IMG/VR virus record: IMGVR_UViG_2671181056_000012 | Location: 1 to 17,566 of that record | Origin: a virus | Taxonomy: Duplodnaviria; Heunggongvirae; Uroviricota; Caudoviricetes | DNA length: 17,566 nt | Reading direction: 5' to 3' (one strand) | In this document: positions 9,001 to 15,000 of the stretch, piece by piece | Position numbering within the stretch: the first letter of the stretch is position 1 | How the letters are laid out: every line of letters begins with the position of its first letter | Made by a program: the position numbers

Positions 9001-12000
9001 CCCAATTCAACCAACACAGGAAGAACATCAACAGTAAACTCAAGTTGGTAGTGAGCATTCATGCGGCAGAAAGACAGAGAAGAGTCATTAGCAACATACC
9101 CACACGGCTTGTTATTTTCATCGTAGACGCGCTCAATGTAGCCAGCAGTACGCAAGGCCGTTAGTGCTTCTTTAACCTTCGTAGCGCCCTTTTTAGCGCC
9201 TAACAGACGGGTCATTGAATGGCTATCTACGGATTTGCGAACATGAAGTTCAATCAGCTTTTTATTTTCGCGAGTTTTCTTTAATGCCAGTTCGATCCAG
9301 TCGGTTTCTTCAAAGTCTGCATACGGGTTAACAGCTAAACGTTCCTGACGCAGTTTTTCATTTTCTTCTTTCAGTCGTTTCCATTCCTGAATAACGATCA
9401 TTCGACGCTTAACATCGTAACCAGTGACAAGAGTCAGCGTCATTTCTTCGTCTAAGTGATATACTGGTTCTTTAACAGCATATCCTAAGTTATTGATTCT
9501 CTCGACAAATTCAGTTTTGAGCTGATCGATAATACCTAAAGATTCGTACATTTCGCGAATATCGCGCATTACATTGCTGTGCTTCTTATCGGTAAATTCA
9601 GCGATCTGACGAGAAGACATGGTCAGCGGTTTGGTGTTATCAACAACCAGAGACACGGAAGCAGTTTTAGCAGTATTCATAACGGTAACAGTATTCATAG
9701 TAAGATTCCCCTTAATTAACGGTTTTGCGATTTAATCCTCCGTGTTCCGGCAGCATCACCGGAACATTTTTATTTATGATAGAAATTTATTACCAATCGA
9801 TTTCTACTTGGTCTTCTTCATAATAAGGAATCGCATATTCATAACGCCAGTTTTCGATGATTTCACGTTCTTCATTAGTAAGAAGGTGATTGCTAACTGG
9901 AGTCGCATTGTGATTACCAGCTTCGAATTGCTCGCGAACTTCCAGCATTGCATGAATACCAGTTAAGGACATCAGATCAAACGGAACATGCATACTACGG
10001 GAGATAGTTTCACGGGATACGCCCCAATCATTTTCTACATGGCTAGGGCTTACAGAAACGGTTTTGCCGGAGATTTTAACAGTCCAGTCATACAGGGATT
10101 TAGTGATGGTAAATTCTTTCATGTTACATCCTCTTTACAAATCTAGGTCAAATAGGTTCAAAGTTGTCAAGTGCGATAATCATAAAAAAGTCAGAAAATT
10201 TTGTCAACACACCTTGACAAGACGCCAAAGTGTTGACCTAACTTACAGCATATCTAAGCCTTCATCGTAACCGTAGAAGCCATTCTGAGAAGAGAAACAG
10301 ATTGGTGTGTAGTCGTCGTCATCTTCGTCTTGTTCATCGTGTTCTGGGGCTTCCTGAGCGGGTTGTTTACCATAATCAGCCATAATCTGGTCAAGATCGG
10401 CGATCCCATAGTAAGAGCCTAAATCAACGTCATATTCACGAACATCAAACGGCAGGTCATCACGAACAATAATTGCCGGAATGTTGTTGTATTGTTCACG
10501 ACCTTCATCAGTAAAGCAGTCTACGATCACCGTAGGGCGACCATTACGTTTAAGAGCATAGAAAGCAGTTGAGAAATTGGAGTCTTCGGAATGACGAATG
10601 ATGTTATAACCACGATTAGCGAAAACATGCATCATAGCCAGATTATCATCATGGTTCAGACCCAGAAGAATGAAAGGAGTTTTAGTATTGATCATAGTGG
10701 AAATCCTCTAAAAGAAAGTGAATCAAACAAAGTACACTATTATTTATAACGAGAAATTTTTGTCTAATTTGAAAGGAATTGGTATTCAGTCGGCTTCGCC
10801 TCCTTCATAGATTTTGATTAAATCATCATCAAAACGAAGAAGTATCTTTAGAATATAAGAATCTTTCTTTTGGAGAAATTATAATCAGGAAGCAATTTAG
10901 CAACCGAAGGTTGCAATCCCGAAGGGATACCAATACCTTTCATGATCATTAAAGTGATCTAGAATCATCTAGTAACCAGTTAACTACTATTATCTTCAAA
11001 GTGATTATTACTATCTTTCTAGAATCAGTTAGTAACTAGTTTAAAATCCCTTTCAAGAAAATCCTTTCAGAAGTGATTCTCGATGCCACGCAGTGGCGTC
11101 GCAGACGTTTGAGAGTGAGCGAAGCGAGCGAGCAAACTAGTTAATTCCTTCTAAGACCATCTAGTATCATCTAGTTTAAATTAGTGTTACTAGAAGTAAT
11201 TGGTTAGCGCTTCGCGCAGTCGGGCTACGCCCTCCTAATATCTTTTTGGTTATTTGTTGTTTTTAGTTTTACACATGAGCGTAGCGAATGTGTTATATAA
11301 TATCTATGCACGCCCGATCCCCCGTTTTTGCCCCTCGCTAAGTTAATGTTTTATAAAGAGTTTTTCTCACCAATCCTTTTCGGGGGCAAATTTCAGGGGC
11401 AAAAATTAGATTTTCAGGGGCAATTATTGGCATTTCAGGGGCAAAAATGAGGGGCAAAATCACTGTTTCCCAGAATTTCAGGGGCAAAAATAGTAGGTTT
11501 CAGGGGCAAAAATGGGATAGTGAAATCTAGGGGATTTTGGTTCAGGGGCAAAATTCAGGGGCAATTTTCATAGTGTAGTGCTAGTGTAGGTTTGAAAGTC
11601 CTTTCTTGACACTATGTAGGTTTGGTGCTATACTTGACAATTCGAGAAAAAATGTGGTATAATATTTGTATTGAAAGTGAAAATTTACCGATTTTCCTTC
11701 CTATTGTTATCACCGTGTTAAATTGTTATATGTTTGTGAAGATTTGGATCTGAGAGAAAATCTTGTAACAAATCTTTACAATTCATAGCTCAATTAATGC
11801 TCACCGCTTTAGCAAAAAGTGCTATGCCTTTTTCTAAATTGATTGAATATACATCAATTTGGTTAATTCGTGCTCTCCGCTTTAGCAATTCGTGCTGCGG
11901 TTTAACACATTTAACACTTCTGATAACATCTGAATAACATTTTAACATATCTCTGTTATAAATACATATATAAGAGATAAATGTGAGGGGTTGAAAAATA

Positions 12001-15000
12001 AAATACAATCCCCATATAAATAATAGTGAGCGGTTAACGCTCTTTTTTAAGAAATCATTAATCCACATTGTAGGAGGATTCGAGATGGCACGACCTGTTA
12101 AGTTCACTCGCGAAATCATCTTAGAAATGGCTAAACGCTACTTTGAGTTAACGCCGGGTGTGAGAATTGAAGAGTGGTTTAAAAATGAGGGTATCGATAA
12201 ATCAACCTTTCATAAACTCTTAAAGAAGTATGACATTAAAGTAAAGATAACCGCAGAGGTTTACTGATACTTTGACTGAGAATTATATGATGGCTTTAAA
12301 AAAAGAAAAAGCCTCCCTTGTTGCAGCAAAGGAGGCTTGAAATGAACAATTAAAACTAACTTTCCACGGAGTATTTATAATGTTATTTTCCGCTAACTTT
12401 TTCACTAACGAAGTAACCAACGCTAAAGCAGTTATCAAATTTGGCACCGAAGCAAACAAGAAGATTCAGCCGAAAGTTGTTGCTCATGTTTCCTTTGCGC
12501 AGCAGAAATCCGCTTTCGCTGGCTTTAAAGCACATCGTGAAGCACTGATCGCGGCTGGCTTTGGTGTTGACGGTAAACTGCCTAACGGCATTCGTAAAGC
12601 AATCGACCGCGTTAAACCTGCTAAAGACGTTGCAGTAGACCACATCGTTACTTTTACCGTTAAGAACTCTTCTGAACTGTTCCACCTGGTTATTGCTGGT
12701 GATACTGCTATCGTTTCCGCTCCTAACATGGATTTTCAGGATACCGCTGATTGCCAGATCACCTTCGGTCGTCGTAAAGAAGTTACCGGAAAAGCTAAAC
12801 TGAACTTCACTAAATCCGGCAATCCTTACTTTGCTGTATTCTTTAACAGCCACGCTACCGAAAAAGAAGTTGTAGAACTGGTTGCTTATGAAGGTGAAGA
12901 GAAAGAACGTATTGAATCTTGCGAAGCATTTCTGGAACTGGAAGCACAGGTGAATGCTGTTTCTCCGGTTGTTGAAGATCGCTTTGCTGCACTGGAAGCA
13001 CAGATCGCAGAACTGAAAGCTGCACTGGAAGAAAAAGACCAGATTATCGAAGCACAGAAAGCTGAGATTGAAGAACTGAAAGCTAAAGAAGTTGCTCCGG
13101 TGGCAGTAGTTGAAAACGCGGCTGATGAGGCCGCAAATGATGAAGTAGAAGTGAAAATCGATGTGATGCGTGATCCGATGGCTGCACTGCAATTACTTCG
13201 TTCTTTTAAGGGCAAATCTCATTTTTCTAGTGATGTAGAAGATGAGGAAGAAGAACAGAAACGCAATGCTGCAATGCTTCATGATGAAATGTACGGTACT
13301 AACTTTTCTTACTGCCAATAAAAAAGGGACTCCGAAGAGTCCCTAGTAAGTTTAGGTTAGGTTTGCACAACAAAGATGAGGTTATAATGAACATAATGCT
13401 ACATTATTCTTTAAAGCCAGAAAAATAACCGCCCCGAAGGGGCGGGAGGATTAATACTCAATCTATACTTGTTATGTTTTTATGTTGTATAGTCACTGAC
13501 TATGAAAACACTGTACTGAATGTGTTTTATGGCTTTTAATCGGGAACTCTCTTTCGAAAATTCCCTGTTAAAACCACATAAGGAGAAATGGCAGATTACA
13601 ATATTATTTAGTCTGTTTGAAAACAAACGTTAAAAATTCGATTAAGCAATATACCCAGCATACAGTAAGCAGTAGATGCATAGAAATAGCCGGATGGAAG
13701 TTAAAAAGTGTCATACTAACTAGGCCAACAATATAAGAAATTCCCTCGACAATTAACGCGAGACTAGAAAATGCAACAAACGCACCTAAGAATAATTCAG
13801 CACGTTCTCTATTTTCGGTTCCGAGTTTATAAGCAGAAATAACAGCCAGAATAGTAATGATGACAGCATAGGTAATAAAAGTAGCCATAGTTTTATATCC
13901 TCTTAAAAGTTAAGCGGGGGATGTTCTCCCCCGTAGACGTTGACCCGTTCAACATCTTTCATACATTTATTTATAACGCGTTTTAAGACACATCAAATTC
14001 ATCGTCTTCTTCTGGTTCTTGTTCTTCCGGTTCATCCATTAATGGTAATTCTTCTTCCTCGTCTTCTCCCAAATCTGCATTTTCGAACAAGTCCCCTACT
14101 TCATTTAAACGACGCTCGATGATCTCCCTTAGCTTATTCTTCAATGTTTTCTGGTCAGTGGCAGATTCGAGAATTTCTAAAGCGTCGATTGTGGCGATCT
14201 GCAAAATAGTCTGCTTCACTTTTCCGCAATATTCCGCTAGTTGCTGTTCTACATACCCGACGGGAATCAGGAGATTCATTGCTTCCTGGTTCTCTCGTTC
14301 GGCTGCGTCCGCTAATGCTCTCTCGCGGCGTAACTTCTCTACGTCGATTTGTTCTTTGACAGTAGCCCCCTCTGTCAGGATAGTTGTCACCCCCATCGAA
14401 AATACTAATGACAAGATGGGAACAGATCGTGAAACGAATTTCACCAGAACGTAAATCGGCTGCACTGGCTAAATTACTACCGCCTTACAACATGACCGTC
14501 ACCGCAGTTGCGCAGATGGAAGGGATATCGGAAGCTACCCTTTATTACTGGCGTAACAAGGCGAAAGCAGAGGGAATACCGGTGCCGGGTGCAAACAAAA
14601 CTACAGACCAATGGTCAGCCGAAGCCCGGCTGGCTGTGATTATCGAAACAGCTACACTCAGCGAAACAGAACTCGCGCAATACTGCCGTAAAAAAGGGCT
14701 TTACCTGGAACAGATTAGTCAGTGGAAACAAGGCTTTTTGCAGGTGTCTTCGCCCACTGACAAAGCGGCGCTCAAACAAAGCCAGAAAGAAGTTAAACAA
14801 CTAAAACGCGAACTGCTTCGTAAGGAAAAGGCGCTGGCGGAGGCGGCAGCGATACTGGTGCTGCGAAAGCAGTTGCGGGATTTTTACGGGGAAACCGACG
14901 AGGACGACTGACGCCCGGAACAGAGCGGCAGGCACTTATCGGTTACGTGCGGGACGCGATGGCGTCAGGAGCTCGGCTGTCAATAGCGCTGACGGAAGCG

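Follow-up and report, generated by a model that had tools for sequence, protein, structure and literature searches.

The interval at positions 11606-12084 of a 17,566-nt stretch of tailed-phage DNA (IMG/VR record IMGVR_UViG_2671181056_000012, positions 1 to 17,566; hereafter the window) occupies the rightward half of a temperate Escherichia coli prophage's central control region. Tentatively, and with somewhat less than even confidence, we read it as a multi-input promoter and attenuator region for an early operon, composed of a 60-amino-acid (aa) helix-turn-helix (HTH) gene and the gene of a 313-aa protein, p313, rather than as a single structured RNA element. The initial annotation had described tandem promoters, a gene-free leader and a terminator, and had offered a regulatory RNA, an attenuator-controlled leader or a transcription-activated origin as their meaning. 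The layout is real, conserved and non-coding; none of the three offered readings is proven, and the description missed both an iteron array just upstream of its coordinates and a sigma-32 promoter inside the leader. The elements of the region are the following, in window positions.

11378-11566, plus strand: iteron array, (T)TCAGGGGCAA(A/T) nine times in direct orientation, and once inverted at 11321-11336
11606-11634, plus strand: sigma-70 promoter P1, -35 TTGACA at 11606-11611, 17-nt spacer, -10 TATACT at 11629-11634
11634-11663, plus strand: sigma-70 promoter P2, -35 TTGACA at 11634-11639, 18-nt spacer, -10 TATAAT at 11658-11663
11705-11728, plus strand: three TGTTA motifs (11705, 11716, 11724), inverted relative to the TAACA array farther downstream
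11734-11781, plus strand: 13-bp inverted repeat with a predicted hairpin of -16.8 kcal/mol (z-score -3.4)
11792-11823, minus strand: direct repeat 1, with the exact marbox GCACTTTTTGCTAAA running from 11822 to 11808
11865-11896, minus strand: direct repeat 2, with the exact marbox GCACGAATTGCTAAA running from 11895 to 11881
11903-11948, plus strand: five TAACA(C/T) motifs starting at 11903, 11912, 11924, 11935 and 11943, read as TGTTA on the minus strand
11957-11964, plus strand: distal copy of TATAAATA
11991-12017, plus strand: promoter of the sigma-32 (RpoH) type, TTGAAA at 11991-11996, 13-nt spacer, CCCCATAT at 12010-12017
12028-12048, plus strand: intrinsic terminator-like hairpin, GAGCG-GTTAA-CGCTC, then six T residues
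12059-12067, plus strand: DnaA-box-like TAATCCACA, matching TTATCCACA at 8/9 positions and kept in most relatives
12085-12267, plus strand: the 60-aa HTH gene, with the Shine-Dalgarno (SD) sequence AGGAGG at 12072-12077
12380-13321, plus strand: the p313 gene, encoding an N-terminal specificity domain, a coiled coil, an acidic linker and a C-terminal module

The two sigma-70 promoters stand as first described, and both spacers fall within the 16-18 nt that define a promoter of this class between its TTGACA and TATAAT hexamers. P1 scores 11/12 and has a TG upstream (predicted start ~11641), and P2 scores 12/12, with a TG at 11655-56 (predicted start ~11670). Only three sites in the window reach 11/12 or better, and dinucleotide shuffles of the window gave a 12/12 site in 2 of 300 cases and a tandem pair in none of 300. 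Comparison was made with 31 related loci from E. coli and Shigella. Two scans of genome contigs with the protein of p150, the first gene of the leftward late operon, detected no more distant relatives; since known relatives come only from E. coli and Shigella, a deep comparison is impossible. Both promoters are retained in all 13 relatives that carry this promoter module, with conserved hexamers and an invariant -10 and extended -10 in P2, and the other relatives have a single TTGACA-17-TATACT promoter instead of the pair. The third near-consensus site of the window, TTGACA-17-TATGAT (11/12; 10207-10179, minus strand), lies between the p150 and p110 genes and is directed leftward into Rha and the late genes.

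The promoters face part of a 1389-bp gap without open reading frames (ORFs; 10696-12084), which separates p150 from the rightward HTH and p313 genes and about half of which is the interval considered here. Gaps of 1.17-1.44 kb occupy the same place in all 31 analysable loci, and in each of them one or two near-consensus sigma-70 promoters face a 300-380-bp stretch without a conserved ORF. Three ORFs can be drawn in the leader of the window (46 codons at 11797-11937 and 43 codons at 11622-11753 on the plus strand, 109 codons at 11790-12119 on the minus strand). Each is broken by stops, frameshifts or loss of the start in about half of 16 relatives, and the leader is therefore non-coding. This agrees with the earlier description of ~420 nt lacking a convincing ORF, for which conservation of the 46-codon ORF had been named as a disproof.

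The same comparison revealed that the region is built from exchangeable modules. The iterons are of the window type, TTCAGGGGCAAAA (9-10 copies), or of a second type, TAGTGTAGGTTT; the leader is either L1, the window type (16 loci), or an unrelated sequence, L2 (15 loci); the HTH gene occurs in three sequence types; and the downstream protein is either R1 (313 aa) or R2 (328-341 aa), which have unrelated N-terminal domains and share the coiled coil, the acidic linker and the C-terminal end. Both leader types carry the same short signals in different order, namely a sigma-32 consensus, one or more marboxes, two copies of TATAAATA and a terminator hairpin. Leader type is unlinked to the HTH gene, p313, p150, p110, Rha, p77, p200, p94, the Nu1-like small terminase or the left-end genes.

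The terminator lies 36 nt before the HTH start codon, as had been noted, and is conserved at about this distance in both leader types, with a different loop and a shifted stem. Its 5-bp stem (12028-12032 with 12038-12042) encloses the loop GTTAA and is followed by the T residues at 12043-12048, in keeping with the G+C-rich stem, short loop and adjoining U-tract of an intrinsic terminator. With a free energy of only -8.3 kcal/mol for so short a hairpin, the terminator is probably leaky. Just ahead of it, what looks like a further hairpin is a consensus sigma-32 promoter sequence. The sigma-32 consensus is TTGAAA / CCCCATWT, or CTTGAA-N13-17-CCCCATNT (PMC6687850, PMC4263515), and we counted as members sequences with (C)TTGAA(A), a spacer of 13-17 nt and CCCCATNT. 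The element at 11991-12017 matches the full consensus, and neither the window nor the 37-kb prophage as a whole has another strict match; a strict match arose in 29 of 2000 shuffles (1.5%). Its predicted start (~12024-12027) falls at the foot of the terminator hairpin, and it overlaps the proximal TATAAATA (12015-12022). The promoter is kept in 27 of the 31 loci with a variable spacer, as expected of a promoter. The L1 copy is 94 nt away from the HTH ATG, within the limit of ~100 nt from the start codon set for a sigma-32 promoter. In L2 it lies at the start of the leader, at -324 and 14 nt past the sigma-70 -10, well outside that distance.

An extended form of this motif, GGGGTTGAAA-N9-CAATCCCCATAT (11987-12017), occurs exactly in about two dozen marine T4-like contigs of IMG/VR, whose neighbouring genes include those for gp46-like, gp45 and gp44 proteins. 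An Hsp20 gene is directly downstream in the two contigs for which genes were identified, one from each of the two main sequence groups (L083 10772-10802, L088 2965-2995), and the other marine contigs (L072-L111 set) have the same flanking sequence. In the marine copies the motif is followed by a 5' hairpin and then by the next gene. A literature search found no precedent for sigma-32 control of a prophage.

The direct repeats had been described as ~25 bp long. The pair exists, and is in fact longer: each copy spans 32 nt, and the two are 81% identical. Each contains, on the minus strand, an exact copy of the asymmetric 15-mer GCANNWWNTGNNAAA, the marbox bound by MarA, SoxS and Rob (PMC12052159). 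The two marboxes are the only exact matches in the 17.5-kb window, where shuffles give a mean of 0.2. Class I marboxes lie in reverse orientation between -56 and -85 relative to the start, and class II marboxes lie forward between -36 and -55. A search of IMG/VR found exact copies of the repeat core CTTTAGCAATTCGTGCT between genes at 45 distinct sites, in unrelated phages with GC contents of 38-61%; the T1-like phage vB_EcoS_AHS24 has three of them. At the 45 phage sites its reverse complement, a perfect GCANNWWNTGNNAAA marbox in class II position, stands between an upstream stop codon and, in this order, a TAnnnT hexamer, an SD sequence and an ATG. The hexamer lies 18-20 nt from the 17-mer at 30 of the 45 sites, and exactly 19 nt from it at 24. 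This arrangement suggests that lytic phages use class II promoters dependent on Rob, MarA or SoxS; no report of marbox promoters in phages was found in the literature searched. The 17-mer AGCACGAATTGCTAAAG, an exact marbox, recurs between genes in T1-like (Drexlerviridae) and other phages (L112-L173, and ~41155 of KF771238.1, L175 856-872). In these phages it is followed after 19 nt by TATAGT, TATTAT or TATATT and a conserved CATCGAAACGAAAC 5' untranslated region (UTR). A sigma-54 reading of the repeat core was rejected, the spacing being 2 nt too short.

Two further sets of motifs are distributed non-randomly. The octamer TATAAATA, identical to the T4 late-promoter consensus, occurs six times in the window against 1.06 expected (10741-10748, 12372-12379 and 13968-13975 on the minus strand; 11957-11964, 12015-12022 and 16415-16422 on the plus strand), and seven times in the prophage, always between genes, against 0.86 expected (0 of 3000 shuffles). 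Each of the 31 gaps has exactly three copies, one toward p150, one near the HTH ATG and one farther upstream, and in all 31 loci, whatever the leader type, one copy is fixed at -68 to -72 of the HTH ATG. Most copies are directed at the next gene (p150, Rha, p94, p113, HTH); for the copy at 12372, a role as no more than the spacer between SD and ATG of p313 is possible. The 14-mer TATAAATAATAGTG lies upstream of both divergent first genes. The five TAACA(C/T) motifs are phased at ~10 bp, as originally reported, with spacings of 9, 12, 11 and 8 nt, and five within 50 nt never arose in 5000 shuffles. As a motif shared among phages the array was rejected, the other matches being chance occurrences inside coding regions. 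OmpR-, ArcA- and PhoP-type readings of the TGTTA array fit its spacing only imperfectly.

By sequence, these elements qualify as sigma-70 promoters, an intrinsic terminator, a sigma-32 promoter and marboxes. According to our preferred explanation, transcripts from P1 and P2 would mostly stop at the weak-to-moderate terminator, which would insulate or attenuate an operon for an iteron-binding, probable replication-initiator protein. Expression of the operon would then come from read-through of the terminator and from proximal promoters that start at the foot of the hairpin, namely the sigma-32-type promoter in the leader type of the window and TATAAATA in both types. Host regulators acting at the marboxes and at the TGTTA/TAACA arrays would modulate the output. 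The trans-acting factors would be encoded by the host, and this would account for the free reassortment of leader types relative to the proteins of the phage. In favour of this explanation are the setting between divergent operons of a prophage, the unusual and conserved promoters, the non-coding nature of the leader and its low divergence (3.1%), the terminator kept in both leader types, the sigma-32 and marbox matches, the fixed TATAAATA copy and the lack of linkage between leader type and phage proteins.

Several observations speak against this explanation. All transcript start and stop sites are predictions. The bypass of the terminator is limited to the leader type of the window, since the L2 promoter is at -324, and TATAAATA lacks a -35 partner. 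The marboxes of the window are on the minus strand, in no validated class I or class II position relative to a mapped start, and the -10 at class II spacing on that strand is poor (TATGAA). Relative to the distal TATAAATA the marbox centre lies, in reverse orientation, at about -81 in the window type and about -71 in the other type. No phage repressor was recognized with Pfam among the proteins scanned, which were part of those of the prophage. Finally, the strong predicted folding of the RNA is unaccounted for if the region acts as DNA alone.

This folding is one argument for a rival explanation, in which P1, P2 and the terminator define a discrete and abundant non-coding regulatory RNA of ~360-380 nt. 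Such an RNA could constitute a self-contained immunity or termination system, of the P4 CI, P1 c4 or N15 type, for example, or could affect RNA polymerase in cis. A non-coding unit is indeed bracketed by consensus promoters and a terminator. The plus-strand leader has a minimum free energy (MFE) of -98.2 kcal/mol (z -7.5 against shuffles), a stronger fold than that of the minus strand (z -5.3). Complementarity of up to 12 nt connects the 5' TGTTA segment with the repeated 3' TAACAC sites, including the stretch 11897-11917. Independence of the leader type from the phage proteins tested is what would be expected of a self-contained RNA switch, and no CI-like repressor was recognized among the proteins scanned. 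The leader is also conserved relative to neighbouring synonymous sites: it diverges by 3.1%, compared with 24.7% at HTH and 3.4% at p313 third codon positions, and is therefore constrained or recently spread. However, the covariation across relatives by which a structure was to be recognized lends no support to a specific fold. The leaders of relatives are 97-99% identical; of the 120 pairs of the MFE structure, 30 vary, mostly in ways that break the pair, and a single one shows a double change. L2 folds modestly (z -2.85) and offers one hairpin with one compensatory pair. Rfam 15 gave no match at gathering scores and only chance-level matches at E values up to 10. The direct repeats are better explained by marboxes; they have no complement anywhere in the prophage, and a P4-like antisense target for them was rejected on this ground. 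We consider the regulatory RNA unlikely. Overall, the identifiable content of the leader consists of DNA-level signals.

A second rival makes the interval part of a replication origin, with p313 on the iterons and strong but non-productive transcription from P1 and P2 opening the origin, by way of the negative supercoils left behind the polymerase or of an R-loop or primer, while the AT-rich leader supplies sites for host factors. The array at 11321-11566, whose unit can also be written TTCAGGGGCAA(A/T) (nine direct and one inverted), stops 40 bp upstream of P1. Across the 31 loci, iteron type is tied without exception to the N-terminal domain of p313, and so to the R type (18 + 13 loci), even though the leader and HTH modules that lie between the iterons and the p313 gene occur in seven combinations. 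This linkage across shuffled modules is strong indirect evidence that p313 binds the iterons; p313 is probably an iteron-binding protein and a probable replication initiator. An iteron-type origin is defined by at least three direct repeats with a cognate protein, and the array and p313 correspond to this, binding being deduced from co-variation. Moreover, the leader has only 31-36% GC, a second imperfect DnaA-box-like site (11267-11275) accompanies that at 12059-12067, and p313 is the only candidate core replication protein, since the helicase and nuclease genes of the prophage are accessory. On the other hand, transcription heads away from the iterons, the promoter of the other leader type is ~230 bp farther from them, no consensus for integration host factor (IHF) and no 13-mer unwinding element were found, and the iteron-p313 pair is equally explicable as a transcription-regulatory pair. 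We hold this explanation to be improbable, to much the same degree as the regulatory RNA. A role of the iterons as cos or terminase-binding sites was rejected; the Nu1-like small terminase is encoded elsewhere and does not co-vary with iteron type.

Together the iterons and p313 define a specificity module that is new, has a very narrow distribution and probably serves replication. Searches with p313 in Pfam, PHROGs and NCBIfam were uninformative, with no family match; a representative set of 1.8 billion proteins gave 12 matches, all from its own small family; a profile search of the PDB found no fold match; and two AlphaFold models (pLDDT 46 and 60) were uninformative. The C-terminal module of the family (window 13100-13321) exists in two unrelated, swapped versions (P0124, P0128, P0131, L032), one of which also ends an Ant/Rha-like protein, which suggests a portable interaction domain. 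The HTH protein has paralogues in the same prophage, p77 (8507-8740) and repeats inside p200 (7876-8478), with the common motif RP.(K/R)F...(G)I..S.F.KL.KKY.IK. Between the HTH and p313 genes a hairpin at 12309-12338, preceded by a long A-tract and followed by T's, has a stem in which the differences between relatives include compensatory changes. This hairpin may terminate transcription in both directions, and a short oop-type antisense RNA might end there.

It could also be asked whether the interval is nothing more than a long 5' UTR or a spacer in which motifs arose by chance and the repeats are functionless relics of module recombination. The region is indeed a recombination mosaic, and two copies of TGTAGGTTTG, similar to the other iteron type, lie on either side of P1 (11585-11594, 11615-11624) and look like a recombination scar. 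The low divergence of the leader could reflect a recent sweep, as third positions of p313 also differ by only 3.4%. Against this, one set of short motifs has been retained in both leader versions, which are unrelated in sequence, and the motifs match independently defined consensus sequences exactly and are rare by chance. This explanation is very unlikely.

In architecture, the region resembles the lambda early right operon and iteron replicons in logic, and the leaders of the P4 and P1 type in form. The lambda operon comprises PR, tR1, cII, oop and O with the ori iterons, and a related arrangement is PR'-6S RNA-tR'. Lambda and the region both have a strong promoter and then a terminator ahead of regulatory and replication genes, and a small regulator gene before the gene of an iteron-binding initiator, with a terminator hairpin between them. 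Unlike in lambda, no N, Q or nut-like parts were found, the iterons are upstream of the promoters and not within the initiator gene, the leader of ~380 nt is gene-free, and p313 is unrelated to lambda O. With the P4 PLE leader and CI RNA, and with the c4 RNAs of P1 and N15, the region would share a constitutive promoter, an untranslated leader, internal complementary repeats, premature termination upstream of replication genes and a self-contained immunity module; it differs from them in having no Rfam match, no covariation support and direct repeats without a complementary partner. As in the iteron replicons (P1 oriR-repA, F, pSC101), direct repeats spaced at multiples of ~10.5 bp adjoin the promoter of the gene for their cognate binding protein, except that here a 420-bp leader and the HTH gene are interposed and p313 has no detectable Rep-like fold.

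The individual signals can be compared in the same way. Class II mar/sox/rob promoters have a forward marbox overlapping the -35; the window has two exact matches to GCANNWWNTGNNAAA, and the identical 17-mer of T1-like phages stands 19 nt before a -10 hexamer. The boxes of the window, in contrast, face away from the HTH operon and have no good -10 at class II spacing, and they may serve as roadblocks or, being centred at about -81 from the distal TATAAATA, as upstream sites like those of class I. TTGAAA-N13-CCCCATAT at 94 nt from the start codon is like E. coli sigma-32 promoters of the groE, dnaK and ibpA type, but the operon encodes a phage regulator and initiator, not a chaperone, and in L2 the promoter is 324 nt upstream. 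PeSL cassettes of T4-type phages are promoter/stem-loop units at module junctions that appear to serve as recombination joints (PMC2839356). The region similarly has a composite promoter and stem-loop at module junctions and contains GGGG...CCCC stems, although in the window these arms enclose the sigma-32-type -35 and the order of elements differs.

The right end of the ~37-kb siphovirus prophage corresponds to window ~60 to ~16400, as established by megablast against complete E. coli genomes, ~1% of which contain the prophage at 90-98% identity. In strain PSJ-22 (NZ_AP027634.1) it splits ycdX, with a large serine recombinase gene at the far left end followed by minus-strand tail and head genes. 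There is no close isolated phage, the best terminase match being 43% identical. The following minus-strand genes of the window were assigned with Pfam and PHROGs.

1742-3748: capsid-protease fusion
5883-7790: gpA-type large terminase
Also: lambda-type portal and Rha protein

Among prophage copies, the left-end genes for the helicase and for the GIY-YIG and CapR proteins proved to be accessory. A GIY-YIG/CapR-domain protein, a CapR-domain protein and a DEAD/DEAH helicase form a variable cassette (L002 31056-34445; left-end loci L041-L068) carried by some copies only, possibly as an island of defence genes or morons. The gene of the Nu1-like small terminase (13983-14465; 188 aa in relatives) is interrupted by an IS3-family element (14365-15979 area) that is 99.9% identical to copies on many enterobacterial plasmids, and the prophage copy in the window is therefore probably packaging-defective. 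Positions 1-68, outside the prophage homology, match the imcA region of P1-like phages (RCS47). ARAGORN called a 91-nt 'tRNA-Gln' at 997-1087, which overlaps a minus-strand ORF (852-1280) and is probably spurious.

When the DNA of the gap was compared with phages, a close-similarity search gave no matches and a distant search only a 60-80-nt block in common with Krischvirus. This block, TTGATTAAATCATCATCAAAACGAAGAAGTATCTTTAGAATATAAGAA (10805-10890), is also found in intergenic repeats of Krischvirus (RB49/JSE-type) T4-like phages, where small GC hairpins lie downstream. The left half of the gap (10790-11290) is rich in C-GNA-G and C-TNC-G mini-hairpins (GCGAAGC, CCGAAGG, CACGCAGTG and similar), and TCTAGAATCATCTAGTA repeats are also plentiful there. 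Given this block and the TATAAATA copies, one might speculate that the prophage responds to superinfection by T-even phages.

We rate the region as a phage early control region of a known sort, but one with unusual inputs of the host-stress type, in a poorly known phage lineage. A bolder proposal, which we regard as rather doubtful, is that the early replication operon is wired directly to host stress regulators through the sigma-32 promoter and the marboxes, and that the marbox 17-mer is an unremarked class II element present many times per genome in T1-like and other phages; the still more speculative response to T-even superinfection would come on top of this. No switch of the CI/LexA type was recognized among the prophage proteins scanned. 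If the signals work, the prophage would sense proteotoxic and chemical or oxidative stress of its host at the early promoter, not through an SOS-cleavable repressor. If the T1-like promoters are what they appear to be, Rob, MarA and SoxS would be host factors for promoters across a large group of lytic T1-like phages, which would bear on interactions between phages and antibiotics.

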